NCBI RefSeq assembly: GCF_006345805.1
Contig: NC_043018.1
Span: 23,560,001 to 23,624,000, forward strand
Direction: 5' to 3'
Source of the DNA: Octopus sinensis
Lineage: Eukaryota
Length of the DNA stretch: 64,000 nucleotides
Shown here: positions 3,201 to 50,413 of the stretch, in pieces
Position numbering within the stretch: position 1 is the stretch's first letter
Layout of the letters: each line of letters begins with the position of its first letter
The notes under the pieces: generated by a model
The model's input: only the letters and a program-made list of their open reading frames with translations
Told to the model about the DNA's origin: nothing
The model's database searches: none
Translations under genes and position numbers: made by a program

Positions 3201-4493
3201 TCTAAATTATACAAATAATCTAATTACAGACGGCAGCAAGCTGGCAGAATCGTTACCATGCCAGGTAAAATGCTTAACAGCATTTCGTCCGTCTTTACAT
3301 TCTGAGTTCAAATTCCACCATGGTTAACTTTGCCTTTCGTCCTTTCAAGGTCAATAAAATAATCGATCAGCTTGTCCCTCCCCCAAAATTGCTGGCCATG
3401 TGCCCTAATTTGAAACTAATAATTAAATAAATGAAATAAAGTTATTTGTACAAATCTCTTAATACTGAACTGTGCAAGATACCAGTATAAACTAGTCTGG
3501 TAGCTGGAGGAATTTGAAGTTCCCACTTGTAAATTAGTGCAGATTTTAAAAGGATCTGGACCGTTCAGATCCAAAAAGTTGGTGTTGTACCTGTACACAG
3601 AACCAGAGTGTGGTGAGCAGAGTGACGAGGTAAACTGGGAAATTGTTTTACAAAGTAATTACTTCATTTGTTTATGATTCATTATGTAATTGACTGTGTT
3701 TTAAATCTCTGGTGTGGGAAATACGATACAGACGGCAGTGAGCTTCAATTCACACACACTTTGAAACTCACATGCACACACATGTGAGAGAGAAAGAGAA
3801 GTGTAAGATATACATGGCTAGAGAGACAGGGTGTATTGAAAATTAGAATTAAGTAAACATCAATATTACTTTTAGAGATTAAACAATCTATGTGTTTAAG
3901 TGCTACTCTGTTTATTTACACACGCACACACACACACATATGTATATGTAACAAAGCCATCATAAACCAAGACCTATAAGAGCCAGAACTTAAATAAAAG
4001 ACAGCTTAGAGTCATAATAACATAAGAGACTATCTAAGACTATGTATATGTATATATATATGTGTGTATAAATATAAATATATAAATATATGTATAAATA
4101 TAGATGTATAAATGTATATGTATAAATATATATATATGTACAAATATATATATATATGTATAAATATAATAATAATATTAGGGAGTATAACTCCAAACTT
4201 ACAGGGGAAAATTCAATTTAGTATTAAATCAAATTTCACAATATAAATATATAAATTAGAGAAATATATATGTATAAATATTAATATACTTAATTGGTTT
4301 CACACTTATATGATTTTCAAAAGTGTAAGTTTTAAGGTATAGAGAGCTGTGTCACATACTGTATCATTTCTAATTTCATATATATATATATATATATGAA
4401 TTTATAAATAAGGATAATATTGATATTTAAATATCGATATTATCAAGTGGCCAGCATGGGAAAAAATACCATACAAAGGTAATAATTTTTTAC

Positions 4494-4704
4494 AACTAAA
4501 AATAAGGGTGTCTGAGAAATACCACCTTGCCGAAATAGCAGTCAAATCCCTGACTCTAAAAGATATTACATCTTTTTGCTAGTCTATTTTGTCCCTCTAT
4601 CTTATCTCATGGTGCGATATGAACATTTAAGGTGGTTCTTAGAGTCAGGGATTTGACTGCTATTTCGGCATGGTGGTGTCTCTCAGACACCCTTATTTTT
4701 AGTT
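4494..4704. repeat. Fold-back element (inverted arms ~65 bp)
   Basis: AACTAAAAATAAGGGTGTCTGAGA...CCCTGACTCTAA and its near-perfect reverse complement at ~4639-4704. Confidence 0.9.
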
Positions 4705-5109
4705 ATATACACAATAGTAAAATATAATCTCAAAATAAACACACAGATGTAGTGTTTAATCTGGCAATGATGAATTATCTCCGTTAAACCATCATTCTCA
4801 CGATTCCTTGTTGCCAACAGCAAAAACTGGAATTCAACAATAAAAACGAAACACACTCTATCCGTACTTCATTCTTAAGAGTTATTTCTAGAAACATTAT
4901 CAGACTTAAGAACAATACTGTCTCAAACTAATTATAAAGGACTAATTAAGAAATGTGGAAAATCTGTAATAAAAAAGTTAAACATGGTTCATTAGCCATA
5001 GCTTTAAAAATAATGTTTGAAAGGAAAACTGGTCTCCATGTCTATCGACACACATGTGTGTATAAATCATGTGTAAAATTGAGACTCAAACATTATATTG
5101 GTAGCAATG

Positions 5110-5170
<61 letters not shown>

Positions 5171-6003
5171 CATACAGATATGTACTTATGTATATGTGTC
5201 ATTATATAGACACATTAATATAAATAGAAGTTATACATATGAGCTAAAGAAGGAACCTCTATCTGTCCAATCAAGCTGATAGAAATAGAAGCCAAATACT
5301 CAATGAACCACAGAACCACAATTAATAAAAAAGAAAAAGAAAGAAAGAATGCACTGGATAAAGGAATCTTAGAAAACCAAAAAACACCTGACAAAAGGTC
5401 TGATGGATCAATGGCCCAGGGCTAAATAGCAGCCACAATATACAAGCTAGTGATTTCTCTTAAAGGGTGTGTTAAATGTTTTAGTAAGTCTGAACATTGT
5501 TGCTATAAAACATACATATATACACTAACACATCAATAATGCTATTCAAACACACACACACATATTAGAAAATGTTGAAATAAATTCAATATTCATTTCC
5601 TGCTCTACACCATGTTGTATACTCCACTTGCTACTCATATATATGTATGTATGTATGCATAAATATGTATAAATATATATATATATGTATATATATATAT
5701 GTATGTATGTATGTATAAATATATATGCATGTATAAACATATATATATATATGTATGTATGTATGAATATTTAAATATATATGTATGTGTGTATGTATAA
5801 ATATATATATATAGATATTTATGTGTATATATGTATATATATAAAATATTAGAAAAACCCACCTTTTATCAATTCAAAATGAATAATTAAATTACACCAT
5901 CTAGAAAATTACATATAATAGAAAAGTGAAAATTAAAATAACAATAAAAAGTAAAGATTAAGTAGATTACAAAAATAATAAAAATGTATATAATCGGTAG
6001 AAA

Positions 6004-6082
6004 AACATGTTTCGCTGCTATATTTAAGAAGTGATTATAGTAGTAGAGAAATCACTTCCATATAAATATAGTCGCTCATCAG
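6004..6082 (-). ncRNA. Hammerhead ribozyme core (type I-like, stem I not evident)
   Basis: Minus strand: CTGATGA (6082-6076), long stem II (GC..CTATATTTA..GAAGTGATT / AATCACTTC..TAAATATAG..GC), GAAA (6013-6010), palindromic ACATGT stem III, then UU. No pairing stem I found. Confidence 0.45.
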
Positions 6083-6721: not shown

Positions 6722-9700
6722 GAAACGTATTGACTGAGACAATGACCAGACTGATTCTCTGAAATATATCTTTGTCCTAAGTACATAGAGCAATGCATGT
6801 CATCTCTCTTTCTCTCTCTCTCTCATTATCACGCGTGAGCTTTGTGTGTGCCATTGATGAGCATCAACCAAGACAGTTTTTGGCAGTTACTCAGTATAAT
6901 CTACTGATTATGTAACATCACTGCATTGAGTATTGGGCAGAAGATGAGCTTGTGATCCTATATTAAATTTTGGACCAATGTGTCTATACTAAATATTGAC
7001 CTAGATGTATTGTCATTGTACTTGAGGCAAGTACTGAGCTATGACCAGCTTTTCTCTCATCATATAGTCTTTCTTAAGATTGTTCTTAATAATGTTAGCT
7101 TGCTCAGGGTACACCTTTTCCGTCCTAGCTCAGGGAAGGGTTGGTGAAATCCTGCGCCTCTGTCCAGTAAATGTCGGTCTTTCACAGTAATGAATCATAA
7201 TGCTAAACTTTTGAGATTAGTATACGGGTAGAAATTTATGTTTGATCTTGCTTTTGAGAAAATAAACTGCAGACCCATGTGCGACTAGACTACATGTGTA
7301 TATGGGTGTGCATGTATCCTTGCGAATGTCTCTGTATTTACGTGTTCCTGTCCATAAAGCTGACATACTTTCCCTTTTATCACTTAATACTAAAGAAAAA
7401 GGAAATTATTTTTCAAAGAATTTTTAACCATTTTTTTTTGTTGCTTTTGTTTTTATTTTTATTTTTTGAAATGAAATTTTTAAAGCTTTCCTTTTGTAAA
7501 TTTTTACCAGCCACCTTGCTGATTTTTTGTCTTTTTTTTTTGTTATTTTTTTTTGTTAACTGACTTATCAACGAAATTCTTTTTCTTTTTCTAAAGTTTT
7601 ATTTACTTCAATGTGTACTCTTTATATCATGTACTCTTTATATTATGTACTCCTGGAGTAAAGCTTTGTTGATTTTGTTGTTGCTTACATCCCGTGTTGT
7701 TGCTATTAGTTCAAATCCCAAGGGGTCGTTTTTATCACCCTGGGGCTCGTTAAAACAAAGAACAAGTCCAATACTGGACATTAATTGAGCATAATATCTT
7801 TTCTTGTAAATTTCTGGCCTTGCACTAGTAAAAGATCATTATCATCATCATTATTATTATTATCCTTATTGTTAATGTTATTAAAAAAAAAAGGCAGTAG
7901 ATTGCCAGAATTGCTAAAGTGTTGGACAAAAAATGCTTTGGAGTGCGTGCTCTTGTTCTCTATGATACAAGTTTGTATCTCAAGCATGGTTGACTTTGCC
8001 TTTCATCCTTTCAAGGGATGATAAATTACCAGTCTGGAACTGGGTTTGGTTTAATCAGCTGAGCCCATCCCAAATTTCAGTCCTTGCCTATGTTAAAAAA
8101 AAAAAATAATATTATTGTTATTGTTATTATTATTATTATTATTATTAAGGTGGTGAGCTGGCAAAATCGTTAGCACACCAGGCAAAATGCTGAGTGGCAT
8201 TTCGTCCACCTTTACGTTCTGAGTTCTAATTCTGCGAAGGTTGACTCTGCTTTTCATCCCTTCGGGGCTGATAAAATAAGTACCAGTTGAGTACTGGGGT
8301 TGATATAATCGACTTACTCCCTCCCCCAAAATTTCAAAATTTGAAACCATTATTACTATTATTATTATAATAATAATAATAATTATTATTATTATTATGG
8401 CAACTGGTCTCCAGCAAGTTCTTAACATCAAAGAGGCAAGTTGGTTTCAATTCTCAATAGTAACCATTTTGACTTTACACCAATCACTTCTTTAGAAAGA
8501 CATCAATGTCGTTTCTTCTTGCTTTTCCCCTCTTCCCTCTCCCTTATAAGCTCTGGATTACTTTGTGCCTATGTAAAGAAAATCATTTGTGATTATCATA
8601 TTTTGTATATGGAATACCAACTGTCTTGATAAATATACATTCATACATGTGTATATAAAATTTGCTCTGTCAAACGCAAGGTAATAAAAATGGTTGTGAA
8701 AAATGAACAACAACAGGAACCAACAACGGAAGTATTTCTATCAATAATGTATTATATTTGAGTAAAGGACCAGATGTGAGTGTAATGGCAGCTTAATAAA
8801 CACCAAATAAAACATTCAACAGATTATAAATATTTGACTTGAGTATATACACGTGTGTATACATTTGTGTGTGTGTTATAACTAATGTGGATTTGTTTTT
8901 TTTTTTCCTCTGCCAAACATGACATGAAGATGCTCAATATACACTCATTGAAAGTCTGGTAGAGCATCTTATATATATATATATTGTGACTGTGGTTAGG
9001 TCCCTACCTTGATTTTGTGTTTGTTGTGAAAACAACAAAGACAAAAGTCTATGAAAGGCCACTAGATCCAAATACTAGTGTCAACCATGGTCCAGAATTA
9101 TGGGATATATATAATAATATGTAATATCACGCATACTTGCTAATTTATTTCTCCTAGTCAAATTAACAGTATCAGTACTGTAATAGCAGGGTAAATAAGA
9201 GTTTGTTTATTTCCCCTTCTTTTTATATCTAAATCAAATGCTACAATTCTAGTTTACTTTGGGCTAAACCAGAGCTCATTGTGGAATTCTTCAGACAGAA
9301 ACTATGCAGAAGCCAGATGTATGCATGCTTGTACGTATGTGTGTGTATGAGTGTATATGTACACACAAACACACACATACATACATACATATACATACAT
9401 ACGTACATACATACACACATATTAGTAATGAACTGAAACAAGTACTCAACACTGAATGGGTGAATAAATAATTCCATTTTAAAGAATTGTGTTACTTTTC
9501 CAGCACCATTGGTTTCTTGTGTGGATCTTTCAATCAAATAACTAGTGAGATACGATCCATTCTTCAAATTCTGGTTGCATAACTGGAAATTTTCACAAGA
9601 AACCAACAGTACGGGGAAAATAACACAAATGTATTTAAGAATTTTATATATATATATATATATATATCAATATATATCATTTTTGGTTATGTACAAATAA

Positions 9701-9974
9701 GTATATTGGTAAGAATAATATGGTTAGAAGAAATGAAGGAATTATTCCAGAGTTTATTTATATAAAAATATAGAAAATCTTAAAATTTTCCAAGGAAATG
9801 AAACAAAATAAAGTAAAATATTTACATTTGATAAAAAATTCTTAAATGTAATATGATTAAATATTTTACTTACTTGCTTTATTCATTTCGTTTCCTTAAA
9901 AAATTCCAAATACTGTATTTAAATAAACTAAGGAACATATCGTTCATTTCTTCTGACGAACTTTATTATTATTA

Positions 9975-10031
<57 letters not shown>

Positions 10032-10954
10032 TATGATGATATATATATATATATATTTATATAGTTAAGTCTGAAAGTAACTGTAAATTTTGTAGCATTC
10101 AGTTTTTAAAGAATATATTCACACAGACTTATAAGGTGTATTTTTATACACATATACTTATGTGCATAAACATACACACACATTTGTATATATATGAGAT
10201 ATATATACCATACTAATGATAACAAAGAGAAAATTTTTTCTTTGTTTTTTTTTCTGGTTTTTTTTTCTCTGTTAAATCAATGTTGTATTTCAAAGCTGAA
10301 ATCATGTGATATTTGTTATTGAATGAAAATATTGTCAATATTTTATGTTACTGAAAAGGAGCAGTAATATTGTTGTGTCCAAGTGGTGCAGCTTGGTATT
10401 TGAACCGTGTGATTAGAGGTTCTAACCAGTGGTATTTTGAAATATTAAGAGCTTTTGTGAGGCATTTGTCAACATGTTAGAATTATTATATAAATTTATG
10501 GAATATACTGTAAATGCTGAAATCCTAATCAAAAACCAAGAATTTATAGTAACTGAGCAGTTGTTTTTGTTTTTTAAATGCAGTTCTTTTCCTATTTTGT
10601 GACTCTGAATTTTTAATCATCATTTAAATATTCAAAATTGTTTTGTAAAGTTATTTTGCAGAAAATTATTCTTTTAAAAAGAAATATTTTGCTATTGAAA
10701 AACTGTCAAAATTTGATGGCATAATTGGTGGATAAGATGGTTTTTGTTCTTATTTTGTGTTTGGTGCAAGATTTCAATAACCTCTCTGTCTGTCTGCCTG
10801 CCTCGAGTGTTTTTGCTATCAGACAAGAATTCCATCCATACAAAAAACAAAACAAAACAAAAAACCTTCTCCACAGACACACACATTTAATGTATATACA
10901 AACACACATACATACTCACACACATACACCCCCCACACATATAGAAACATACAT

Positions 10955-11005
<51 letters not shown>

Positions 11006-11079: not shown

Positions 11080-12582
11080 CATATATAATATATATATATA
11101 TACATAGCAGTTACAGGTATTATTTAAAACAATTTGATTTGGCTTTTTGCAGAATCAGACTGTTTTAAATAATAATAATAATGATCATGATCATGATGAT
11201 AACAATAATGCATACATACATATTTCATTAGATACACAACTGTGTTCAACTTTTATCGTTTTCATTTTATATTTATTAGTTTGAATCAATAAAATTCATG
11301 AATTCATGTTTCACATTTTCAGGTCTTCACACGTCTGGAAATGTATAATATGAATATAGGAATTTTAGTCTTCCAAACTAGCTGTAAAAAAAAAGCAAGA
11401 AGAAAATATGAAAATTCTAAAATACAGAAGATAAAAGTTGAATAGTTATGTAAGACATCAGAGCTAACTTAGCTGATCTGTCTGTTTGTGGTCCATACAT
11501 GTCAGTGTAGACAAATTGATGTTTGAAACAATGCAATAAAGTGTAGGGTTTTTGCTCTTTTCTAAAACTAATTCCTTATGTAATGAAAATACTATGACCA
11601 GCATGTGATTAAATCTAATTAATGAATTAATCCAATAGATTAGCTAATTCAAGAAGATATGTAAGTGAAATGAAATATGGAATTTGTAACCCTTAACTGT
11701 ATCTAGAATAAATTTCTTTATAATTAATCTAAATATTATTGTTAGTTTTATAAATTTAAACTGGCTGGGATATTTAATGAGTGAAGTTGAGAGAGGAAAT
11801 CTGAGAAACAGATTTCAATTAAATTTATTTTAACTAAATGTAAATTTAATACTTACAAATAAAATGACAAGATGTTCACGGAATTCGATTCTTTTCATTT
11901 AACTGAATTATATCCTGGTAAGTGATGCTGGAATCTGAATGATTTCTTTCAACACTTGCTGGATTTATGATTTCAAAGGAATGAAAGTTAATATATCTCT
12001 TTTGAAACAATGACCCTCCATAAAACAGCAGTGAATCCCTGTGACTTGGAATAAAAAAAAAAAAGAAGAAAATCCTCTGAATTTAGAAATCCGTTGACTT
12101 TCTTCAGAGTGACATTCTTCAAATTGAGCAGTTGGAATTCCAATACACTTTAATGTTTTGTGGATTTGGGATGGAAAATGCTGGGGTGGAAAATTTCAAT
12201 TCAATTACCCCTCCACAAAGGCACAGTCACTTGTTAGTATTTTATCTGAATATAATCCAGGCGGAATACACAACAATGAGGGTTGCCTTTTCCCGTCTTT
12301 TTACAGACAGAACAAAAAATCAAAATTAATAATTGATCCTAAACAATTCACAACTAATTAAAGGGATATAACTGATTAATTATATCTTTTTAAATAGTTG
12401 ATAACTGCACTTGTTGCCGGCTTTGTTTGAAGTGCGATGGTAGAAGCAGGGACTTCAACCCATCTTCACCCAACAAAGAATTTTAAGGATATACTTCTTG
12501 TTAGGTAGAAAAGAATAGAGTTTATCTGGTGGAGGTCTTTGTCAGCAAAGCATCTCATTAATTAAGATCATATCTAGTAAAC

Positions 12583-17460: not shown

Positions 17461-18499
17461 CCAACCAGTTAAAACAAAAACAGTGCTTATCTCTCCCACA
17501 TGTAGCTTTGTTTTCTAGTCTCCATACACAACTTTCTAAGTTTCTGCCAATCTGACCTGAACACCTAGCAAATACCAAAACCATTCCAGGTTTGCATTTT
17601 GGAGGAAAACTTAAGGAAAGATATATCTCTTTTTCACTTTTTCATTTTTTGATGTGGTGGTGGCGATGATGATGATTGTGGTTAACACCTAGGTGGACAT
17701 GGACAGTCAATACTGAATAGTTTACAACGAATTGCGTTAGTATAGTAGAAAAGTGGAACATATTCACTATTATTATTAGTAGTAGTAGTAGTATAAATGA
17801 ATTTTGCTTTACATTCTTCTGGGATGAATAAAATAAAGTACCAGCTACTTTCCAAGATTGAACATAATCAACTATTTCCTTTCCCCTTAAGACAAATTAT
17901 TGTTGGCAATGGGAGGTCAACCTTGCCTTTCATTTTTCCATCTTTTGGTAATATTGATTTGTCGCTAGATTAATTAGAATCTAGGTGTATCAAGTATGAA
18001 GGGCACCAGAATTGGCTGGGTTCTTAGTGTTGAGCCTACAGTACATTGAAGGAACTCATAGTTATTTATTAGTAGTATATCATAAGCATGTATACACACA
18101 CACACACATCTATATATATGGATCAAAACAGTTTGCTTCAAATTTGTTGGTTCTCTTGAGTTTCAAACATAACGCTAGTTGTCAGCCATGAAATACAAGG
18201 GTACCAATGCATTTGAATCAAACTGTTTTGATCCATACATGTAACTCCCAATAAATTGGTTGAGTGCCCTTCGTTTGTCTGTCCACTCACTTGTATATGT
18301 GTGTGTTGTGTGGGCAGTTAAGGTAAATTCCTACTAGCAAATGAAACACATGTAATGATGAATAAATAATACCTAAAAATTTCCAATTTCCTGTTTAGTT
18401 ATATAAATATACATATAGACAAATACATATATATATATAGGCAGCCAATCCAACATCAAGGTGATTGATGACAAACTCAGAAGACCAGTGGATCCATGC

Positions 18500-18830: not shown

Positions 18831-20526
18831 CTTTAAGCTTCTGAGTTCAAATCCTAACAAGACAAACTTTGCCTTTCACCCCTCTAGGGCCAATAAAGCA
18901 GCAGGCTAGTAGTGGGATGTAATCAGCAAACCCAGCCTGTCAAAACTGCTGGCCTTCAGCCAAATTAGAAAGGATTCTTGTTTGGTGGCAATGCCTGTAG
19001 TAGAAAGGATTATTATTATTGTTAAGAGATGGCAGAATGGTTAACACGTAGGACAAAATGCTAAGGTGCATTGCTTTTAGCTTTATGTTCTGTGTTCAAA
19101 ATCTGTCAAGGTTGATTCTGCTTCCATCCTTTCAGGGTCAATGAGATAAGTACCAGTTATACACTGCAGTCAATACAATCAACAAGCTCCTCACCCCAAA
19201 ATTCCAAACCTTCTTCCTCTAGCAGAAACAATTATTATGATGAGGATGGTTAAAGGGTTGGTGAAATACATTTCTTCTGGTTCCAAGTTCAAATCTCACC
19301 AAGATCAACTAGGATCAAACCAAGCTTTGTGGGGGAGACTAAATGCATAGAAACAGTGTGTGGACGAATAGGTCTGCCAAATGGACCCTTCCTCTAATTT
19401 GAAAGGACCAGTCTTATCATACACACATGCCATCTCATGCCGATTCTGCCTGAAAATTACATTTAAGATACACATGCCTGTGGAATACTCAGCCATATTA
19501 CTCTACAATTCCCTAAGCTAGGGGTCCATTTGATCACACAACTGGAAATATTCATTCATCAGAAATTACCACCTGCCCCTCACCATGGAAGTCATAACAT
19601 ACCCACCATCTATTACTCTGAAGGCATACAGCTTAGTGATTAGGGTATTTGGTTGTGGGTTCAATCCCTGGTGAAACATTGTGTCCTTGAGCAAGACACT
19701 TTATTTCACATAGTTCCAGTCTACTCAGCTGGCAAAAAATTAGTTGCATTTGTAGCTCAAACAGCCAACCTTGTCACATTCTGCACCATGCTGAATCTAC
19801 TTGAGAACTACATTAAGGGTACACATGTCTGTGGAACGCTCAGCCACTTGCATATTAACTTCACAAGCAGGTTGCTCTGTTGATCAGATCACCTGGAATC
19901 TTCAACATCATAACTAACAGAGTGCCAGCTATCACCTGCTATTGGTCACTACTCTCATCCAACAGAGAAAACAACGAACTTCCACCATGACCACCACCAC
20001 CAGCCATCTTTATCGATTTCAGTCTCTGAAATTTCTAAACTTCAAATACTAAAATAGTTCCCATATACGTACACATGCACATTAGAACACACACACACAC
20101 ATTTATAACAAATAAAAATTTACACTTACGCACATATACACATACTCATGCATTTATGTATACACAAGAATATGTGTGTGTATGTATATATATATATATA
20201 GTCTAAGAAACTTTAAGTTGGAAAAATATGCACTCCTACATTTGTCAGTAGAGTGGATATATTAAAATATTATAGATCAATTTTAGCCAATATTACCAAT
20301 TAGTTTTGCTCTGGGTATTGGATAACCAGATATTAGATAAAAATGAAGTTAAGTAACACGTGCTCTTCAGGGATAGTAGGTATGAAAAAAAAACCTGCCA
20401 GCTCTGAAGAGCACATGTCACTACTTCACCACACTTAACTAATATCGTGTAATCTAAGACACTGTGCAAAACTAATTAGTAAGACTGGCTGAAATGGGTC
20501 TATACTAAATATTTTGATTTATATAT

Positions 20527-32545: not shown

Positions 32546-32952
32546 TAATAATATATAAGAATAAAATCTGTATAAGAATTTATCAAGTAGCCAGCATGGA
32601 AAACCAGTTCAGGAAAAAATTAATACAAAATATACTATTTTTCTCTTCATATATAAATACATTCATTATATTAAGGGCTATTACCACATGTAAGTGCTTC
32701 ACGCTGTTATGGGTGTCAGAGTCCCATAGCAGTGTGAGGCATTTACATGTAGTAATAGACCTTAATATAATGAATGAATGAATGAATGGATGGATGGAAT
32801 TTATAGAAAAACAAAAGACAGGTTTATGAACGACAAGAAGGTGTATTAGTTTGATACTTGGGGAAGTGAAAAATGAAGTTTTTTATGTTTTGAGCCTCTG
32901 CTCTTCAGCAGAAAGGAATGAAGGGAAAAAACCAGAGAGAATGATGTATGTA

Positions 32953-32993
<41 letters not shown>

Positions 32994-33658
32994 TTCAAAA
33001 TAGAAAATTACCCTTTAACAGGTAATTTTTACATGTACCTGTTAAAGGGTAATTTTCTAGTTTGAAATATGAATATGTTGTCTATTGACTATTTATACAT
33101 GCTGGGCCACTGGTGATGATATTTATAACAAATATTTGCCACCCTATATATCATCATCATCATCATCATCATCATCATTTAACGTCCGCTTTCCATGCTA
33201 GCATGGGTTGGACGGTTCAACTGGGGTCTGGGGAGCCCGAAGGCTGCACCAGGCCAGTCAGATCTGGCAGTGTTTCTACAGCTAGATGCCCTTCCTAATG
33301 CCAACCACTCCGAGAGTGTAGTAGGTGATTTTATGTGCCACCGACACAGGTGCCAGACGAGGCTGGCGAACGGCCATGCTCGGATGGTGTTTTTTATGTG
33401 CCACCGACACAGGTGCCAGACGAGGCTCGCAGACAGCCACGCTCGGATGGTGTTTTTATGTGCCACCGACACAGGTGCCAGATGAGGCTCGCGAACGGCC
33501 ACGATCGGATGGTGTTTGTTACGTGCCCACAGCACGGAGGCCAGTCGATGCGGTACTGGCTATGGCCACGTTCGGATGGTTTTCTTGTGTGCCACCGGCA
33601 CTGGTACCACAAAGATACAAATTCCATTGATGTTCATCTATTTTGATTTGTCGGCCTA

Positions 33659-33694
<36 letters not shown>

Positions 33695-34102
33695 TATAGA
33701 TAGGGTACTACATGTAGCACCAGCAGGCTAAAATTAGCACTCAAAAGAATTCAAAACCACAGTTTTCACTTGTACACAAGGGCAAAATCAAGTGAACAAC
33801 GAATAAAATTTTAAGACCCTGTATCATAGATGAGAAGAATTGAAAATGCAAATCATTTTTGATTCTTTTTACTGCTCGTTCCCCCAATTTCCCCCTTGTG
33901 TACAAGTGAAAACTGGTTTTGAGTAGTTTTGACAGTTATTTTTAGCATGCTGGGGATACATGTACTAACCTTCATTATTAATTAATAATTTTGCCTTTAA
34001 GATTCTTTTAAGCATGCTAGCCACTGATATTATTGTGAATTATTAACAATAATATCCTTATATATTTTGATATAATAATATAATAATATATAATAATATA
34101 TC

Positions 34103-36161
34103 ATTATCATCATCGTTTAACGTCCATTTTCCATGCTAGCATGGGTTGGACAATTTGACTGAGGAATGGCGAACCAGATGGCAGCACCAGGATCCAATCT
34201 GATCTGGCAGAGTTTCCACAGCTGGATGCCCTTGCTAACGCCAACCACTCCGAGAGTGTAGTGGGTGCTTTTACGTGCCGCTGGCACGAGGGCCAGTCAG
34301 GCAGTACTGGCAACGGCCATGCTCAAAAGGTGCTTTTTATGTGCCACCTGCACAGGAGCCAGTCCAGCGGCACTGGCAGCAACCTCACTCGAATGTTTTG
34401 TTCAAGTGCCGGTAAGGTGAAGTTGGTAACGATCACGCTCAAATGGTGCTTTTTACGTACCACTGGCATAGAAGCCAGACAGCTACTCTGGCAGTGATCC
34501 TGCTCATATAGAGCTGTTAGTGCTCCACTGGCATAGATGCCAGTCATCGAATTTGGTTCAATTTCAATTACATTTGCTCCAACAGGTCTTCGCAAGCAGA
34601 GTTTAGTATCCGATGAAGGAAGGTGTGCCAGTCGTCGAATTTGGTTCGATTATGAATTCGATTTCACTTCCCTCAACAGGTCTTTGCAAGCAGAAATTTG
34701 TGTTCAAAGAAGAAAAGGTATGCATAAGTGGGCTGGCTACACCCCTGGTAAAGGCGATGGGTTATGGTCTCACTTGTCTTGCCGGGTCTTCTCATGCACA
34801 GCATATTTCCAAAGTTCTTGGTCTCTAGTCATTGCTTCGGTGAGGCCTAATGTTTGAAGGTCATGCTTCACCACCTCATCCTACGTCTACTTCTTCCACA
34901 GGTTCCCTCAACTGCTAGGGTGTGGCACTTTTTCACACAGTTATCCTCATCCATTCTCGCCACATGAACATACCAACGCAGTCTCCTTTGCACACCACAT
35001 CTGATGCTTCTAAGGTCTAACTTTTCTCTCAAGATACTTACACTCTGTTGAATATGCACACTGACATTACACATCCATCGGAGCATACAGGCTTCATTCC
35101 TTGTGAGCTTATGCATGTCCTCAGTAGTCACAGCCCATGTTTCACTGCCATGTAGCATGGTTGTTCGTACACATGCATCATACAATCTACCTTTTACTCT
35201 GAGCGAGAGGCCCTTTGTCACCAGTAGAGGTAAGAGCTCTCTGAACTTTGCCCAGGCTATTCTTATTCTAGCAGTTACACTTTCAGCACATCCGACCTCA
35301 CTACTGACTTGGTCACCTAGGTAATGGAAGCTATCAACTACTTCTAGTTTTTCTCCCTGGAATGTGGCAGAAGTTGTTCTCTGCATATTTTCAGTGTTTA
35401 TTACTCTTGAGCATCTGCCACATGCAAAAACTATCTTCCCAGTTAGCCTTCCTTTGACAATGCTGCACCTCTTACGTGTCCATAGCTTACACTGGGTACA
35501 TCTTATAGAGTTTCTACATACGCCTTTTCTACAGATCAAGCAGGGCCATCTACCTTCCTACTTATTAGGACTTTGGTTTTAGCTAGGTTGACTCTAAGGC
35601 CCTTCGATTCTAATCCTTGCTTCCACACCTGAAACTTCTCCTCTGGTTCTGATAGTGACTCAGCAATTAGAGCAAGGTCATCAGCATAGAGGAGTTCCCA
35701 GGGACATTCTGTCTTGAATTCCTCTGTTATTGCCTGGAGGACTATGATAAATAGGAGGAGGACTGAACCATAGTGGTCCCCTACTTCTACCCAGAATTCT
35801 TCACTGTACTCGTTGTCAACCCTCACCTTACTGACAGTGTGCATGTACATGGCTCGCACAGCTCTCACTAACCATTCATCTATCCCTAGTTTCCTCATTG
35901 ACCATCAGATAAGGGATCGGGGCACCTTGTCAAAGGCTTTCTCCATGTCAACGAAAGCCAGGTACAGAGGTTTATCTTTGGTTAAGTACCTTCATTACCT
36001 GATGCAAGAACTTGATACCCCTGTAATCATTTGTATCTAAAGTGTAACCTTACCTTTGTAGCAGTTGACTATGGTGCTGCTACACCAGTCATTGGGTATG
36101 ATTCCTTCATGTATCACCTGGTTAACAATACGAGTGACTAGGCTATAGCCAACACTGCCAG
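34103..36161 (-). mobile_element. 5'-truncated RTE-clade LINE (RT domain plus 3' tail), frameshifted
   Basis: LYLAFVDMEKAFD, ELLYADDLALIAES, GLRVNLAKTKV, Cys-rich CRNSIRCTQCKLW, AWAKFRELLPLL, LYDACVRTTMLHGSETW; internal deletion near 35990; (ATG)n tail at 34103. Confidence 0.93.
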
Positions 36162-36538: not shown

Positions 36539-36733
36539 AATTATAAATAAGAACAAAAGAAGGAAATTTCCTATGCCAATATGCTGAAAAAATAGACTTT
36601 AGATTGTCTAACCACATATAATATTTTTCACTGTATTTATAGTGAAAAATATTGTATGTGGCTAGACGATCTAAAGTCTATTTTTCAGCATATTGGCATA
36701 GGAAATTTCCTTCTTTTGTTCTTATTTATAATT
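36539..36733. repeat. Fold-back element (arms ~93 bp)
   Basis: AATTATAAATAAGAACAAAAGAAGG...TTTTTCACT / AGTGAAAAA...CCTTCTTTTGTTCTTATTTATAATT with a tiny loop. Confidence 0.92.
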
Positions 36734-37310
36734 GTTTATAATTTTCACCTTCAAAGGTATTTTAATATGCTGGCTGCTGATAAGACCTTTTTGAAAAATT
36801 TTGTCCTTATATTAGAAGTATATATATATATATATAAAAATACAAAATGGGACAAGAACGCAAAACATCCAGAAGATGATACAAAAAACACACGACGGGT
36901 CATTCAAAGCCTTTAATTTTCAGTCAAGAATTGGATCATCCTCGCAATTTCGGCTGATTAATCTTGAGATTGCTCCAATCTGGCCAGCCCCAAGGAAAAA
37001 CTAAGCTAAGAGCATTAGATTCCTAGGAAAAAAGCTTCGAATGTACACGAAACAAGGATGGAAAAACGGACGATGTTACACGAATATAAATACAAAAATA
37101 ATACGTAAAAACAACAATAATAATAATAACAGGACATCACAACAGGCGTCTTTCGACTGGAAACGAACTGAATTCAGCTGGCATGTTAGGAATTTAAGCC
37201 TTAGGGCAGAAGAAATGTGTTGATGTTGCTCGACTGCTGCCAAACCCAAAAAGGCCAGTTGTCAGAGAAGAGAAGAGAGAGGAAAAGAGGAACAAAGGAA
37301 TTAAGGAGGG

Positions 37311-37354: not shown

Positions 37355-37671
37355 GTGAGAAAAAGGGAGAGACGGGGACAAAGTGAAGTGCAAAGTAAGA
37401 AAGGCAAAGAAATGTAAGTGAGCGGGGAGAGAGAGTGTTGTAGAAGTCATACAAAGTTTAGTGAAATGTGTACTTACATATAAGAGAACATAGTGTACGT
37501 ACACCGCTATATATATGTATATATATAAATAAAAATATACAAAATGGGACAAGAACGCAAAACATCCAGAAGACGATACAAAAAACACGGACAGGTCATT
37601 TGAAACCTTTAATCTTCAGTCAAGAACCGGATGATCCTCACAATTTCAGCTGTGGCCAGATTGGAGTAATC

Positions 37672-40459: not shown

Positions 40460-41756
40460 CTTACCACACAGCCACACCTGCGCCTATATTTCTGTGTGTT
40501 TGCGTGTGGAAAAGAGGAGGATTGAATGTGTGTATATACATATATGTGTGTGTACATAAGGGATTTTGTGTGTGTTTCTGTCCCATTGTTGAATTTTAAA
40601 TGAGTGTCCTCAAACAAGCAATGTCATTCATTTCCAATCTTTATGAAGACATGTCCAGATGTGTAGAAACATAAACTGCTTCGGGAACAATTGAGGATTG
40701 GCCTAAGAAATTCTGTTTTGATCCACACAAGCATGGAAAAGTGATGATGATGATGATGATGTCTATAAATTTCTGTAAGCATGTGCATATCATTTGCGAA
40801 TGCAGTACTGGAAAAAGATGTAAACTGTAGCAAGAAACCTGATAAACCAGTGATTTCATATGAAAATACCTTGAGTGATATTTGTTCAGTCCCCATTGCA
40901 CAGACAATTTCATGTCCCTCACATTACTACAAACTAATGATTACTCCAATGGATAGTGAGGCAGAGCTAAAAACACGAGGATCCAATGGAGAGAAGCAGA
41001 AAGGTCAGCCCAAAGTCGAAAACAGTGGAGAAAAGTCATTGAGGGCCTATGATCTATAGGAAGCAAAAAGGCTTAAGTAATAAAGCCTCCACCTTGAAGA
41101 GTAACTTACTAGTTGTAGCCATGACCAAAGGCAACCCTAAATAACCACAAAGCTAAAAGTTTGAGAAGAACAATGGTACAGTCACTTAATGATTTCTAAT
41201 ATGTCACCCACTGTAAAAAGTCAAGCTCCTTCCCAAGTCATATAGACTTACAGAGCCACTTTCCTGGTTTCCATGGCATATAAATTCCCCACCTGGATGG
41301 GATGCCAGTCCCTTGCAGGGTTAACTTATTTTTGCCAGCTGAGTGGACTGGAACAATGTGAAATGAAGTGTCTTGCTCAAGAACACAATGCATCACCCAG
41401 TCCAGGAATTGAAATCACAATCTTACAATCATCATTATCATCATTGTTCGACCGTGGTCAAGACAATGGAATTTACCATGCTACGCCAGACTTCACGGTC
41501 CATCATAGCATTATGGAGGTCCTGTTGCTGGATGCCTGTATCCCTGGAAATTACATCAGGGTAGGAGAGTGTGCGCCCTCTGGTATTGCGAGTAGATGGC
41601 TTCCAGAGGAGAAGAGTAGAAATTGCCTCGTTTTCAGCTCTACGACAATCATGAGTCCTACACCCTAACTACTAATCCACGCACCTCCACAGAAATATGC
41701 ACACCAAGGTAAAATAAAAGAAAAAAAGTAAAAAAAAAAAGCAATACATTACTTAC

Positions 41757-41999
41757 AGGTCCAAGTCGGTAGAAAACTTTCAAGCCAGAAGTAGGAGGTG
41801 GTTGTTTTATTTTAAAGCGGCACGAATCGACACCAATATTTCTAAGAAAGAAGAATTTTTCATAGGTCTGACCCACTTTGATTTTACCAAACTGAAGCTC
41901 TTTCACAGATAGTTCAAGGGACTTGCTAAGTTTCATCCTGTCCTTTTCTTGGAGAGACGAACCAGCGAGTCTGCTATCGATCGGTTTGACATTGTGAGA
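41757..41999 (-). CDS. SPAG17: SPAG17-like exon
   Basis: ttcatttccag| ... |gtaagt; 243 nt, phase 0-0. SHNVKPIDSRLAGSS...LQFGKIKVGQTYEKFFFLRNIGVDSCRFKIKQPPPTSGLKVFYRLGP matches the recalled SPAG17/PF6 C-terminal motif (N.GVD.CRF.VKQPPPSTGLKV.Y.PGP). Confidence 0.9.
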
Positions 42000-42588
42000 C
42001 TGGAAATGAAGACAGAATTAAGAGACCAAAAGATACTGGCAAGAAGACGCACTGACGCACATGAAATGCAATGCAAATGCACTCAATACAAATGTTGGTT
42101 TGTTTATGTCCCTATAGCTTAGTGGTTCTGGAAAAGAGACCAATAAAATCAGTATCAGACTTTAAAAAAGGATAAGTACTGGGAGTCAGTCAGTTTGATT
42201 AAACTTTTCAAGATGGTGCCCCAGCATGGCCACAGTCCAATGAGTGAAAACAAGGAAAAGGTAAATGATGAAACCCTTGCTGCCAACATAAAAGGGGTCA
42301 CAAATACAATGATGTTGATGATGATGACTACAACTAAAGTGATGATAATGACAACAACGATAATAATGATGACAATGATGATGGCGATGATGATGACAAT
42401 GGTGGTGATGATGGTGGTGGTGGTGATGATGACGGTGGTGGTGGTGGTGATGATGATGATCATGATAGCAATCACAATATTGATGATGGAAGTGGTGGTG
42501 ATGGTGGTTGTAATGATGATATGCATCCAACAAGCAAAATATTTCAACTAACAATAAATTTTTTTAAAAACCCCAAAAAAACCCTTAC

Positions 42589-43378: not shown

Positions 43379-44074
43379 ATATATATTGTTTCACACATGT
43401 ATCCTAAAACTGAATCAAACTTATTTGTGCGAAATTGGTGAATTACCAGCTAGTATAAAATAAATATATATATATATATATATCATTATCGAAATCGAAT
43501 TGAACCAGCCAGGATCCCTGGTCTGGTGGTACGTAAAAAGCACTATCCGACTCGTGGCCGTGGCACGTAAAATACTCCAATGCGACCGTACGACAGGCAC
43601 CCATGCCAACCCCCTTTGCTTGTGAGGACATGTTGGGGCAAGCGAAATCGAAATCGAATTGAACCAGCCAGGATCCCTGGTCTGGTGGTACGTAAAAAGC
43701 ACTATCCGAATCGTGGCCGATGCCAGCACCGCCTCGACTGGCTTCCGTGCCGGTGACACATAAAATACACCAATCTGACCATGGCCGTTGCCAGCCCCGC
43801 CTGGCACCTGTGCAGGTGGCACGTAAAAAGCACCCACTACACTCACGGAGTGGTTGGCGTTAGGAAGGGCATCCAGCTGTAGAAACATTGCCAGATTAGA
43901 CTGGAGCCTGGTGCAGCCTTCTGGCTTCCCAGAACCCCGGTCGAACCGTCCAACCCATGCTAGCATGGAGAACGGACGTTAAACGACGATGATGACGATG
44001 ATGATATACATATATATCATAATAAGAAATACTAAATTTCTAAATCTCTCGTAGAGACGTACGGTGGTGGGGCG

Positions 44075-44404
44075 ATAGAATGGTTGTATACTGTCAATCT
44101 AACACGAACGTGACAGTAGGGGGGGTACACCACCGCTGTATAGCCCTAGGAAGCATTGACGACTCCTGATGGCTTTTCACATTTTTCCCTGTGTCCTTAT
44201 ATACATTTACGAAGGGGAGACAAACACCCCCGGCCGCCGGAGCTGCATCTAGGGACACGTGTTTCAGGATCATTGTATATAAGGACACAGGGAAAAATGT
44301 GTCAAAGCCATCAGGAGGCGTCGATGCTTCCTAGGGCTATACAGCGGTGGTGTAGCCCGCTACTGTCACGTTCGTGTTAGATTGACAGTATACAACCATT
44401 CTAT
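44075..44404. repeat. Fold-back element (arms ~130 bp, loop ~66 nt)
   Basis: ATAGAATGGTTGTATACTGTCAATCTAACACGAACG...TCCTTATATACA and its reverse complement; (TA)n is adjacent. Confidence 0.93.
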
Positions 44405-45290: not shown

Positions 45291-45497
45291 ATATATAAAA
45301 AAGGAAATGAAGAAAATGCTGACAAAATAATTTAAGTAATTTAAGTAATTTAATTAGGTGAAAGTTCTTTTTACTAGTTGCGCATTTGTTATGCTTATAA
45401 CAAATGCGCAACCGGTAAAAAGAACTTTCACCTAATTAAATTACTTAAATTACTTAAATTATTTTGTCAGCATTTTCTTCATTTCCTTTTTTATATA
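45291..45497. repeat. Fold-back element (arms ~100 bp)
   Basis: Near-perfect palindrome centred on TTGTTATGCTTATAACAA (~45386-45403). Confidence 0.93.
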
Positions 45498-46440
45498 TAT
45501 ATATACATATTTATTACCTATAGGTGCTGAATGCCTTTGCCATAGTTGTGGCTTAATGGGCGATAGATATACCTCAGAAACTTCATCTCTACCTACGGTG
45601 CCTGAATAATGAACAACAGAAGGTCATTGATGGAAAACAGTGTTGGAGAGCAAAGTTACAAGTTAATGTTAGCAATGTTAATGGTCAATAACAGAAGTCA
45701 ATGTTAGCAGACACTGGTCAGAAGATGGCACTGGAAGCAAATGTCAGGTGTTTCAGGAAACCACAATATATCTTTTAGCATTTACCTGTTTCAGTCATTT
45801 GATTGTGACCATGCTGGGGCATCAAGTTGAAAGGTTTTAGTGGGAGAAATCGACCCCAGGACTTATTTTTTTAAAGCCTAGTACTTATTCTATCAGTCTC
45901 TTTTGCCAAACTGCTAAGTTGCAGGGACATACACACACCAACATCAGTTATCAAGCAGTGGTGGAGATCACACACACACACATATTATAGATATGTATGC
46001 AGAAATGAAAAGAAGTAATTAACTGCTGAATATAACTGGATATAAATCTCTGTTCTCCTTTATTATAAATTCAGTGTGTGTGTGTGTGTATGATGGGCTT
46101 CTTTCAGTTTCCGTCTACCAAATCCACTCACAAGGCTTTGGTCAGTCTGAGGCAACAGTAGGCTACTGTTAAGTTATGAGGACGTAAACACATCACCATC
46201 GGTTGTCAAGCGATGTTAGGGGGACAAACACAGGCACACAAACATACATACATACATACATACACATATATACGAGAGGCTTCTTTCAGTTTCCATCTAC
46301 CAAATCCACTCACAAGGCTTTGGTAGGCCCGAATAGAAGACACTTGCCTAAGATGCCATGCAGTGGGATTGAACCCAGAACTATATAGTTGGGAAGCAAG
46401 CTTCTTACCACACAGCCACACTTATATATATGTGTATGTA

Positions 46441-46488
<48 letters not shown>

Positions 46489-47225
46489 CGCAGGAGTGGC
46501 TGTGTGGTAAGTAGCTTGCTTACCAACCACATCATTCCAGGTTCATTCCCACTGCGTGGCACCTTGGGCAAGTGTCTTCTATTCGGGCCTACTAAAGCCT
46601 TGTGAGTGGATTTGGTAGATGGAAACTGAAAGAAGCCTCTCGTATATATGTGTATGTATGTATGTATGTATGTTTGTGTGCCTGTGTTTGTCCCCCTAAC
46701 ATCGCTTGACAACCAATGGTGGTGTGTTTACGCCCTCATAACTTAACGGTTCGGCAAAAGAGGCCAATAGAATATGTACTAGGCTTACAAAGAATAATTT
46801 GCTCGACTAAAGGCAGTGCTCCAGCATGGCCACAGTCAAAATGACTGAAACAAGTAAAAGAATTAATAGTATATAAAATAAGAATGCTTTATGATGCAAT
46901 CAAATTATTCATCAATAAAAAATGTGTTTAAAACAGATGTAGTGAACCTTTGACCCATTTGAGTTATTCTATATAAACATCATATCTGGAACCTTCCTTG
47001 TATTGAATCTGAAACTTACATTGGATTGTGAAACTCCACACTGGTGTGCATGGGTATATAATTTCATGTCTACACATATGCGTAAGTGTATGAATATGTC
47101 CATGTATACATGGGTATATATATATGGATGTGTTTGTATATGGTAGATGCACAGATCTTGGCCCTCATCTGGTCTCCTCCATATTAAACAAATCATATCA
47201 AATCCTACAAATAATTAATGACTAT

Positions 47226-47464: not shown

Positions 47465-48470
47465 GCAATAAACACTGAAAATATGCAGAGAACAACTTCC
47501 GCCACATTCCAGGGAGAAAAACTAAAAGTAGTTGATAGCTTCCGTTACCTAGATGACCAAGTCAGTAGCAGGGGAGTGTGCACTGAAAAGTGTAGGTACT
47601 AGAATAAGAATACCCTGGGCAAAGTTCAGAGAGCTCTTACCTCTGCTGGTGACAAAGGGTCTCTTGCTCAGAGTAAAAGGTAGACTGTACGATGCATGTG
47701 TACGAACAGCCATGCCATATGGCAGTGAAACATAGGCCGTGACTGCTGTGGACATGCGTAAGCTTGCAAGGAATGAAGCCAGTATGCTCCAATGGATGTG
47801 TAATGTCAGTGTGCATACTTGACAGGATGTAAGTACCTTGAGAGAAAAGTTGGCCCTAAGAAGCATCAGATGTGGTGTGCAAGAGAGAAGATCACGCTGG
47901 TATGGTCATGTGGGGAGAATGGATGAGGATAGCTGTGTAAAAAAAGGGTTGAGGGAACCTGTGGAAAAGGTAGACCCAGGAAAACCTGGGATGAAGTGGT
48001 GAAGCACAACCTTCAAACATTAGGCCTCACTGAGGCAATGACTAGTGACAGAGACCTTTGGAAATATGCTGTCCTTGAGAAGACCCAGCAAGCCAAGTGA
48101 GACCATAACCTCATGGCCTATGCGAGGGATGTAACTAGCCCACTTATGCATATCTTTCCTTCATTGGACTCTAAATTCTGCTTGCGAAGACCTGTTGAGG
48201 CAAGTGAAATTGACATCAAATTTGATGACTGGCATCCGTGCTAGTGGAGTGCTAAGAGCAACATCCGAGTGTGATCATTGCCAGAGCAGCTAACTGGCTT
48301 CCATGCCGGTGGCACATAAAAAGTACCATTTGAGTATGATCGTTACCAGCGACTCCTTAGTGGCACTTGTGCCGTAGGCACATGAAAAAACATTAGAGCG
48401 AAGTCATTGCCGGTGCCACTGGACTGGCTCCTGTGCAGGTGGCATGTAAAAAAACACCATTTGAATATGG
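47465..48470 (+). mobile_element. Truncated RTE LINE copy
   Basis: FQGEKLKVVDSFRYL..., WAKFRELLPLLVTKGL..., LYDACVRTAM; same family as 34103. Confidence 0.9.
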
Positions 48471-48509
48471 TACCTATGTGTGTATATATTTGTGTGTATG
48501 TATATATAT

Positions 48510-48935
48510 ATCACCTTGATCACCTTGACCGACCAGTCCGTCAGGTGTCCATTTGACACCGCTGGTCACAGCATGCTGTCCACTCCTCTCTGGATCACAC
48601 CTTTCACATCCATGTGATCCCAATCGTCCTCCTGAAATCGTAACTCCACCATCGTGGAGGCCTTTCCAGGTCGTCGTGTCCGCTCACGCGGGTACCACTC
48701 GACAACTGCGCGGGTCCATCGATTATCGGTGAGCCAGGCGACGTGTCCAGCCCATCTAAACTTGCTGCGTGTATACTCTGCGATGACATCCCTCACGCCA
48801 GACTTCTTTCTTATGATCTCACTACTGATGTGCTCTCTCAACGAGATACCAAGCATTGACCTTTCCATGGCTCTTTGAGCTGTTACCAGTCTCTGCTCTT
48901 CTCTCTTTGTTGTAGCCCATGTTTCACAGCCATGT
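48510..48935 (-). mobile_element. 3' end of a second RTE-clade LINE family
   Basis: MERSMLGISLREHISSEIIRKKSGVRDVI...KFRWAGHVAWLTDNRWTRAVVEWYPR...RW; tail ...GGTCGGTCAAGGTGATCAAGGTGA followed by (TA)n. Confidence 0.85.
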
Positions 48936-49535
48936 ATATATATATATATATATATATATCATCATCGTTGTCATTTAATGTCCACTTTCCATGCTGGCAT
49001 GGGTTGGATGGTTTGACCAAGGACTGGCAAACCAGGAGGCTGCACCAGACTCCAATCTGATCTAATAAGGTTTCTACAGCTGGATGCCCTTCCTAATGCC
49101 AACCACTCGAGAGTGTAGTGGGTACTTTTTACATGCCACCAGCACAGGGGCCAGTTAAGTGGCACTGGCATCGACCATACACGAATAATGCCTTTTACGT
49201 GCCACTGGCACGGGAACCAGTCAGGCAGTACTGACAACAAATATATATATCATATGTATATAATTGCATGTATATACATATGTACAAGGTTGTATAATAC
49301 ATACGTATATATTTATGTATGTATGTATATTTTATATATGTATGAATATATGTTTGTCAGCAAGTACTTATATTCATTGAGCACACTATCTGACTGTTAC
49401 CTGTGCCTTGTATATTGAAATACCTGGATTCTAACTAATGAATCTCACAATTAAATAATGATGTTTATATATATAACTAGATTATTTTATGCGCAACTCC
49501 ATTGTCTCCCGAGACAAAAAGGATGCCAACAACAA

Positions 49536-49903
49536 TCTATATATATAAAGCTGAAGTTGTCTGTGTGTGGCAGGTTTTGTAGCCTTCAACTAACACTATC
49601 TCTGAGACCCTGCGGTGTAGGTTGACCAATATTGAGAGTATGATAGAAGAAGGTTTGCTCTTCATTCCGTAGAAGATAAAATTTAAATTGGACCATGTTA
49701 AGACCAAAAATTATTTACATCAAAAAGGTGCTTTTTTTCTATGAAAATCCTGATTTTTTATGATTTTTTGACTCCTGTGTCACCATTTTTCGGTGTATTT
49801 CAACCAGAAAAATGTTCACTTAAAGAGAATAAGCTACATAATGCAAAAATTCCAATTCTAAAGGGTCGAAACAAACCCAAGCAATGCCGGGCAATACTGC
49901 TAG
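49536..49903 (+). mobile_element. Non-autonomous Helitron
   Basis: A|TCTATATATATAAAG... start; sub-terminal GC hairpin CCCAAGC-aat-GCCGGG ~10 nt before the CTAG|T end; no TSD. Confidence 0.8.
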
Positions 49904-50413
49904 TATATATATAAATAAAGATAAGATGATTATTTAAAATACCGATCATATCAAGTGGCTAGCATGGGTGCATTTTACATTTCACTGGCACAAGTGTCCT
50001 TGCATGTTATTGATATAAGTGCCATTTACATGACTCTGGCACAGGGTCTACTGAGAATTCTGACAGAAATGAGGCAATGTGTAAGGTAGGAGAGGTGGGC
50101 ATGGTAGTTAAAGACATGCATGTATGCATGGATGGCTACAATTTCATTGTGTTTGTCGTGTCTTCTTAAGCATGGCAAATCACCAGAAGTCTTGGTTCCT
50201 TGTCATCTCTGTGAGGCTCAACAGCCAAAGATAATCTTTCACCGCTTTGTCCAACATCTTACTGGGTCTACTCTTCCCACAGGTTCCCTCCACAGAGATC
50301 AGCATTTCTTTATGCTGCCATCTTTATCCATATGCATCACATGACAATACCAGCACAGTTTTTCCCTCTTGTACCCTACATCTCATGCCTCTTATACCCA
50401 ATTTTCCTCTTAA

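Follow-up and report, generated by a model that had tools for sequence, protein, structure and literature searches.

Motif-bearing elements and their layout

The 64,000-nt window analysed here (Octopus sinensis, assembly GCF_006345805.1, contig NC_043018.1, positions 23,560,001 to 23,624,000, forward strand) is AT-rich animal DNA with abundant simple repeats, in which a 17-nt motif or a recognisable variant of it recurs near one end of six short insertions, each lying against a (TA)n run. Behind the motif, a long hairpin was present in five of the six, at the positions given in the initial annotation, and none was present at the sixth (49950). Whole insertions spanned just 170–370 nt, including tails (i.e., the motif-bearing segments outside the hairpins) of 70–105 nt. 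The parts of element 4442 and the other five elements, each named for the position of its motif, were as follows:

4400–4490, minus strand: tail segment of element 4442, placed by the leave-one-out profile and (TA)n proximity; contigs that pass the right arm enter its reverse complement
4413–4444, no strand: stem-loop at the terminus, lying between motif and (TA)n end (z −4.95), with an equivalent stem in 6/6 ends
4442–4458, plus strand: perfect copy of the motif, from the motif scan
4491–4559, plus strand: inner (tail-bearing) arm of element 4442, with a degenerate second end/stem-loop/motif module at its start
4558–4576, no strand: short palindrome with a 7-bp stem and a 5-nt loop where the two copies of element 4442 join, read from the sequence
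4573–4638, plus strand: hairpin loop of element 4442; family sequence, collinear with the tail-less arm (contigs spanning 4573–4698 and 4586–4709)
4639–4709, plus strand: outer (tail-less) arm of element 4442; its second end is fixed, and other copies continue there into (TA)n
32552–32779, plus strand: element 32582; tail 32552–32656, perfect motif 32582–32598, arms 32657–32713 and 32723–32779, loop 9 nt
32984–33150, minus strand: element 33098; tail 33077–33150, motif 33098–33117 with three inserted letters, arms 32984–33024 and 33036–33076, loop 11 nt, (TA)n past the outer arm
33702–34066, minus strand: element 34013; tail 33972–34066, motif 34013–34028, second module at the arm start, arms 33702–33788 and 33887–33971 (82%), (TA)n past the outer arm, whole body homologous to 4442
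36539–36815, minus strand: element 36766; tail 36734–36815, degenerate motif 36766–36781, second module at the arm start, arms 36539–36635 and 36638–36733 (95%), loop 2 nt, collinear with 4442 and 34013
49910–49966, plus strand: element 49950; tail and motif 49950–49966 with one mismatch, without hairpin, likely a single truncated copy

For 4442, 32582, 33098, 34013 and 36766, respectively, hairpin arms were 69, 57, 41, 87 and 97 nt long, 94, 88, 93, 82 and 95% identical and separated by loops of 79, 9, 11, 98 and 2 nt. Hairpins began 21–58 nt past the motif, an arrangement with a chance of about 3e-9 for five of six copies, calculated for a distance range that was chosen post hoc. The window held 16 long non-simple hairpins, five of which bear the motif end.

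Homology and (TA)n setting of the six ends

The initial annotation had listed six sites of one motif. What stood of this was a set of six homologous, (TA)n-anchored ends, the 17-mer itself being exact in just two (4442 and 32582). A scan with at most three mismatches gave three matches in the window, compared with 0.47 expected, the third being 49950 with one mismatch. The motif was alignable only with insertions or deletions at 34013(−) and 33098(−), and a 9-nt core was the sole matching part at 36766(−). Comparison of the ends over about 60 nt by leave-one-out nhmmer indicated homology of all six, every held-out end ranking above all other sites (E 1.2e-5 to 0.033), and revealed no seventh end of the motif lineage in the window. 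The 9-nt core is a poor probe by itself, since 20 of its 25 window matches were outside the motif elements, where nearly every one marked an end of a different abundant repeat.

As initially described, the ends face (TA)n. Thus, 6/6 tails were 0–9 nt from a run of at least three TA units, compared with 14% of random positions within 12 nt of such a run, and three of the five tail-less ends were within 3 nt of one. The small TACC..AAGGT palindrome of the initial description was found at 4442 and 36766. The TA runs beside the motif tails at 33150 and 34100 have been reinvaded by an abundant repeat ending in (ATC)n, which is presumably RTE-type, and the run beside the 49950 tail has been invaded at 49876–49904 by a hairpin-plus-CTAG end, which we take to resemble a Helitron 3' end. 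The motif was also considered as the start of an open reading frame (ORF), a reading rejected because stops come immediately in the sequence of several copies.

Terminal stem-loop and repeated module

Between the motif and the (TA)n end, a stem-loop was found in 6/6 ends (z −4.95, −1.68, −2.61, −5.45, −0.56 and −0.72). In the alignment of these stems, 87% of cells were paired and four of eight pairs had changed on both sides; 2–10 of 500 shuffles were as high on four of five measures and slid controls gave 41–63%, all for six sequences from which the structure itself had been derived. RNA folds of whole ends (111–146 nt) were not significant (z −1.85 to +0.99).

A matrix of two blocks, derived from the six tails, was scored at the tail-less ends. 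Second copies of the module were indicated at the tail-less ends of 4442, 34013 and 36766, with 15.3, 18.3 and 17.3 bits (1, 0 and 1 of 300 shuffles), and none was indicated at 20 control ends (best 21 of 300 shuffles). When the matrix was used unanchored, the top site outside the tails was the second module of 34013, at 24.3 bits. By eye, a short palindrome lay between end and motif in each of the three second modules. An 8-nt sequence that opens one end of the elements also recurs, in similar form and inverted, at the start of the other. Because the tail-derived matrix scored three tail-less ends above shuffles and controls, the tail resembles a diverged tandem duplicate of the module ahead of the inner end. 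The new detail suggested by these sequences is thus a stem-loop beside the motif at all six ends and a second end/stem-loop/motif module in three elements.

Relatedness of the hairpins

The hairpins had been called unrelated, which is overstated, three of the five (4442, 34013 and 36766) being collinear homologues and two lacking a detectable link. Unanchored arm-to-arm local alignment of 50 pairs gave nothing significant (5 of 300 shuffles for the best pair, with controls equally good). When alignments were anchored at the motif, z was 3.9 for 4442/34013, 4.1 for 4442/36766 and 3.5 for 34013/36766, with 0, 1 and 1 of 1000 shuffles and 7–13 of 1500 random window pieces as good, and no significant alignment was obtained for the 12 pairs that involve 32582, 33098 or 49950. 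The outer arm and loop of 4442 aligned along their full length with the inner arm of 34013 (z 5.0, 0 of 400 shuffles); for the bodies of 32582 and 33098, nothing significant was found beyond single pairs at 3 of 400 shuffles. Given collinear anchored alignments among the first three elements and none among the other 12 pairs, the set is, as judged from these alignments, one diverged three-member lineage together with three ends whose bodies are unlinkable.

The element 4442 family in public contigs

Public contigs from runs X1, X3 and X12, the last carrying another organism code, were placed on positions 4320–4800 at 80% likeness, yielding 1077, 831 and 37 contigs, respectively. Summed depth relative to the unique flank was 3,002x over the motif bin and 4,732x over the loop bin for X1, and 4,297x and 5,351x for X3, ratios that are no copy number and are readable only as "thousands". 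Tail, arms and loop of 4442 are one high-copy repeat. In X12, depth was about 10,000–11,000 over the motif bins and at most about 690 over the body, which suggests that the motif is spread wider than the 4442 body.

Among the matches listed, loose ends behind 4709 were (TA)n in 25 contigs of X1 and 19 of X3, and five X1 contigs continued beyond 4704 in sequence reverse-complementary to the tail; body, arm and tail therefore form a continuous unit. Contigs spanning 4573–4698 and 4586–4709 indicated that the loop runs on from the tail-less arm. Nine different skip joints tied the left part of the element to differing points of the right part, each by a single contig per run, and one of these, 4471>4662, was shared by X1 and X3. 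At two of these nine joints (4471>4662 and 4476>4648), the left half ended 15–20 nt short of the arm start. Two strand-switch joints were also among those listed. Loose ends before 4573–4574 agreed poorly (0.53–0.64) and may show where a short template ends on its 5' side, or merely where this copy does. The family was therefore seen to have a fixed outer end at 4709 and a copy-specific inner junction, i.e., a fixed 3' end with variable 5' truncation. The variable self-complementary body proposed in the initial annotation does not describe 4442, the arms and loop of which are fixed high-copy family sequence with only the inner junction varying, nor does it suit a set in which three of five bodies are homologous.

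Other hairpins and hammerhead parts in the window

Three hairpin elements without the motif served for comparison:

29269–29545, plus strand: hairpin 29269–29475, 69 nt from the right-hand (TA)n, with a Hydra-type hammerhead half at 29427
30563–30880, plus strand: 121-nt arms, 61 nt from the right-hand (TA)n
32310–32476, plus strand: perfect 52-nt arms and a tail of 51 nt between two (TA)n runs, with a Hydra-type hammerhead half in each arm

The 30563–30816 hairpin, which is young and has arms 98% identical, contains a full hammerhead core of the G3-C8 form across its left arm and loop (10/10 core positions, 0 of 40 shuffles). The Hydra-type half pattern occurred four times in the window, compared with 0.5 expected, three times inside the hairpins at 29269 and 32310 and once beside 20152; 29269–29545 and 32310–32476 are candidates for short stubs of Hydra-clade Penelope-like elements (PLEs). 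Six of the 16 long hairpins (4442, 25274, 32310, 33098, 34013 and 44075) were at most 10 nt from (TA)n on one side and 51–93 nt from it on the other.

Two further tailed hairpins between TA runs, 25274–25515 and 44015–44404, had different bodies and tails with a common exact 13-nt stretch and more, which may represent a second cross-family tail motif. More hairpins, mostly touching TA runs, were noted at 9688–9996, 18111–18243, 20257–20522, 45291–45498, 54144–54373, 11277–11380 and 58142–58188, and the density of hairpins, all counted, was about one per 4 kb of window. At 46165–46750, common repeats form a 293-nt inverted duplication (89%), the halves of which meet without spacer at a central TA run, and its origin differs from that of the tailed hairpins. 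A further TA-anchored repeat end occurred twice in direct orientation, at 36833–37160 and 37524–37650, with a spacing of about 690 nt, the second copy being split by another element; this pair resembles a PLE partial tandem.

Relation to Penelope-like elements

The available text of PMC8557442 describes a PLE layout in which a 5'-truncated copy adjoins an inverted 5'-truncated copy and one of the ends is extended, as well as (TA)n targeting by Naiad and Hydra elements. In the octopus window, an inverted 5'-truncated copy lay beside a direct copy in five of six elements (the arms being family sequence at 4442), the tail extended one end only in 5/5 hairpins (and was joined to the arm in contigs of the 4442 family), and all six tails were in (TA)n or AT-rich surroundings. 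Running from (TA)n through tail, arm, loop and inverted arm to a further (TA)n, and having a fixed outer end and a variable inner joint, the arrangement is that of PLEs. The PLE link made in the initial annotation was thus borne out by layout, and its picture of a conserved terminus common to several families, (TA)n targeting and no coding capacity was likewise supported. The motif elements are likely extreme 3' ends of PLEs or short RNAs mobilised by PLEs, an assignment drawn from layout in all families and from outside data in one. PLEs are reported to be abundant in O. vulgaris (PMC13282606, as far as its accessible text goes).

Set beside the EN+ (endonuclease-bearing) PLEs (Penelope/Poseidon, Neptune, Nematis, Naiad and Hydra) as presented in the accessible parts of PMC8557442 and PMC3846280, the motif elements are alike in the inverted 5'-truncated pair, the one-ended extension and the junction palindrome; these PLEs are likewise present in Octopus, and Naiad and Hydra share the (TA)n targets. 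The motif elements differ in their length of 170–370 nt, in their longer tail and in having neither an ORF nor a canonical hammerhead, and a cross-family motif with a repeated end module is not described in those parts of the two papers. Similarity to the Poseidon element PAc of Anolis, in the portions of PMC11167929 available, extends to two fixed ends that bound the tail, a stem-loop at the initiation region and an AT-rich target in which both strands are used. In PAc, however, the tail, which follows a hammerhead, lies in the ORF start and has an AC-rich stem-loop, whereas the stem-loop of the motif elements is AT-rich and no frame is evident.

Ribozyme content was also compared. According to PMC8557442 (available text), a hammerhead occurs in the pseudo-long terminal repeat (pLTR) of canonical clades and Hydra and is absent in Naiad and most Chlamys elements. 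The half ribozyme of Hydra-clade ends in File S2 of that paper, as far as consulted (GAA, 4-bp stem III, 1-nt loop), is shared by the window hairpins 29269 and 32310, which have a similar layout, but is absent in the six motif elements, where a stem-II-like hairpin in 4442 and 34013 is similar by eye only. A relaxed hammerhead core was sought in the six elements, the best match being 9/10 with 5 of 40 shuffles as good. A hammerhead reading of the 4442 arm was rejected, the candidate being not canonical and the contig variants not restoring its core. Naiad-type PLEs do not require a hammerhead. Paired minimal hammerheads on opposite strands, 100–700 bp apart, have been tied to truncated PLEs (PMC4209133, accessible portion).

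Among other short elements, non-LTR retrozymes (10.64898/2026.07.22.740005, in the text available) and non-autonomous Chlamys elements are likewise short, non-coding and thought to be mobilised by PLEs. Retrozymes consist of direct repeats in tandem, every unit containing a working type I hammerhead, in contrast with the motif elements, which are dispersed and inverted and at which neither tandem units nor a hammerhead was found. The Helentron derivatives HINE and DINE-1, to judge from the consulted part of PMC4067079, are alike in being non-coding, in a short inverted repeat near one end and in conserved cross-family termini; the motif elements differ in having no subterminal inverted repeat (subTIR) pair or outer 3' palindrome, TA rather than TT flanks, long arms and a variable junction.

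Searches against PLE consensuses gave internal matches only for exact 9-letter motif terms, other matches possibly being hidden by line breaks, and no match between the motif elements and the 3' ends of Naiad_Obim, Naiad_Ovul, Naiad_Omin and Hydra-1_Obim by eye. A likeness of the motif to a spider Naiad end and of an arm to a mussel Naiad were lone short matches and were taken as chance. An autonomous partner was not found among the scanned window ORFs, in the Naiad and Hydra consensuses or in pattern scans of metagenome and viral contigs. No papers on these octopus elements were found, and Repbase, Dfam or the library of PMC13282606 may already hold the families.

Other features of the window

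Near-identical repeat copies with internal 63-nt tandem units were found on opposite strands at 33329–33646 and 60550–60867, and a 147-nt unit in four tandem copies (96% identity) at 24443–25031. Pfam matches among the scanned ORFs included a PapD-like exon at 41661–42017(−), of which about 41745–41945(−) was 97% identical to a predicted Octopus vulgaris PapD-like-domain protein and which presumably belongs to SPAG17, an RVT_1 fragment of another long interspersed nuclear element at 35539–35904(−), a mariner fragment with the Mos1 helix-turn-helix at 62546–62887(−) and one further weak, unrelated match.

Discussion

The motif elements are probably PLE-type tailed inverted stubs, in which two 5'-truncated copies stand head to head as a result of two-sided priming. 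An endonuclease of the element would cut both strands of a (TA)n run, and a PLE enzyme would begin reverse transcription of an RNA intermediate, in the strand polarity presumed here, at two fixed sites about 85–95 nt apart. The copy from the outer site would bear the tail and motif and the copy from the inner site would be without tail; both would end early and be joined through short inverted microhomologies, with the shared template giving rise to the arms and the surplus length of the longer copy to the loop. The motif would likely be part of a cis signal (motif, stem-loop and end) for initiation or integration, kept while family bodies diverged and doubled in the 4442/34013/36766 lineage, one ahead of each end, so that each module may set one start site. 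An idea of one module per start site was not found stated in the literature searched, as far as its accessible text goes. Comparable events have been described for a Poseidon PLE in vitro, where both target strands were nicked and extended and reverse transcription started at two RNA sites bounding the tail (PMC11167929, available portion).

Synthesis by fold-back, the mechanism suggested in the initial annotation, is not new, since palindromes at inverted PLE junctions and self-priming were put forward in PMC3846280 (accessible part), and it remains viable for hairpins with 2–11-nt loops. Under this rival, a PLE-type element's single cDNA (or an antisense template) would fold onto itself and prime its own copying as far as the inner start site. 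The junction palindrome at 4558–4576 is in keeping with it, and so are loop lengths of 2, 9 and 11 nt for three motif elements and of 1–12 nt for six other hairpins. At 4442 the fit was poor. A single cDNA started from the tail and folding back would place a loop only on the tail-bearing arm, whereas the 4442 loop belongs with the tail-less arm, and folding back of the left half cannot supply the right half in the two of nine joints at which the left half ends before the arm. Two separately primed cDNAs are therefore favoured at 4442. The intact hammerhead core at 30563 also spans the loop and tail-less arm, so that for both elements self-priming would require a second primed copy or later deletions. 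Fold-back as the general route is accordingly rather unlikely, and both routes may operate.

Considerably less likely is an origin as DNA elements, either fold-back transposons resembling MITEs (miniature inverted-repeat transposable elements) that target TA runs and have internal deletions, or Helentron-derived HINEs. The similar inverted 8-nt sequence that opens both ends would suit such elements, as would conserved termini with divergent bodies, which are generally known to be typical of such superfamilies, and the stem-loop just inside one end recalls the subTIR and inverted-repeat pair of DINE-1 (PMC4067079, consulted part). The long inverted match, however, pairs the right end with an inner left segment, 70–105 nt from the left end, instead of pairing the two ends; identical 11–15-nt subTIRs with an outside 3' palindrome were not found, the stem-loops lying inside and the flanks being (TA)n and not TT; the inner junction is copy-specific; and PLE-type ribozyme parts occur in hairpins of the same layout. 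A target-site duplication would be masked by the (TA)n flanks. More doubtful still is a conserved end that is a small separate repeat beside host inverted duplications made by template switching in repair or replication at TA runs. The absence of any detectable relation of the 32582, 33098 and 49950 bodies to the rest would accord with this, as would the 293-nt inverted duplication centred on (TA)n at 46165–46750; against it, the body of 4442 belongs to a high-copy family, is linked with the tail in other copies and has a second end that is fixed, and three bodies are homologous. Only two of six motif matches are exact and simple repeats are plentiful, but an assembly artefact caused by reads that fold back, or motif matches arising by chance in AT-rich DNA, is very improbable, given arms that are 5–18% divergent, recovery of all six ends by leave-one-out search and, for 4442, independent contigs that cross the 4682–4800 junction (one X1 contig with 0 other letters), which refute an artefact there.

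Several results weigh against formation by two-sided priming of PLE stubs. Three of the six terminal stems were individually weak (z −0.6 to −1.7), the two-block matrix found no second module at the tail-less ends of 32582 and 33098, and used unanchored it gave 18–20 bits at the unrelated sites 55457, 51137 and 45867. Contig placement covered one family (4442) and, with 4320–4441 skipped as repeats, took in no tail-side end; the raw-read run X22 had 0 reads placed on 4320–4800, a count that is no test. The reference reveals only joints in which the tail-less half is the longer, later deletions could yield the 4442 joints, and loops of 2–11 nt in three of five hairpins are more simply explained by a single fold-back. 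No PLE ORF, reverse transcriptase or GIY-YIG domain was matched by Pfam among 130 of 316 complexity-filtered window ORFs, the six elements contained no ORF, and an Rfam scan of them gave no hammerhead and only miRNA- and snoRNA-type hairpin matches below cut-off. By eye and with short search terms, none of 53 Naiad or 5 Hydra consensuses was seen to carry the motif at its 3' end, and tails of 70–105 nt exceed the 30–40 nt published for PLEs.

Somewhat unlikely is an origin of the motif elements as PLE passengers that lack a ribozyme and resemble short interspersed nuclear elements (SINEs), with an RNA 3' end that is a tandem module pair, each module positioning one reverse transcriptase of a dimer. 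If this is true, the PLE tail would be the second module, tail length would be module spacing and the hairpins would record two-sided priming.

The PLE layout itself is already known and, without an autonomous partner, the present result is descriptive. The formation of PLE tails and inverted copies is nevertheless treated as an open question in the available text of PMC8557442 and was answered in part in vitro (PMC11167929, as far as accessible), and a handy natural data set for it is offered by thousands of very short copies in which 300 nt take in the junction and both ends. Two-sided priming can be told from fold-back by counting the arm to which the loop belongs, and the repeated module is a concrete candidate initiation signal. 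For annotation, the 16 long hairpins in 64 kb, many with a PLE-like layout, could be classed by automatic tools as MITEs or unknowns. Should two-sided priming from paired modules be correct, it would provide a sequence rule for internal initiation by PLEs, and many octopus repeats filed as MITE, SINE or unknown hairpin repeats would be PLE products.

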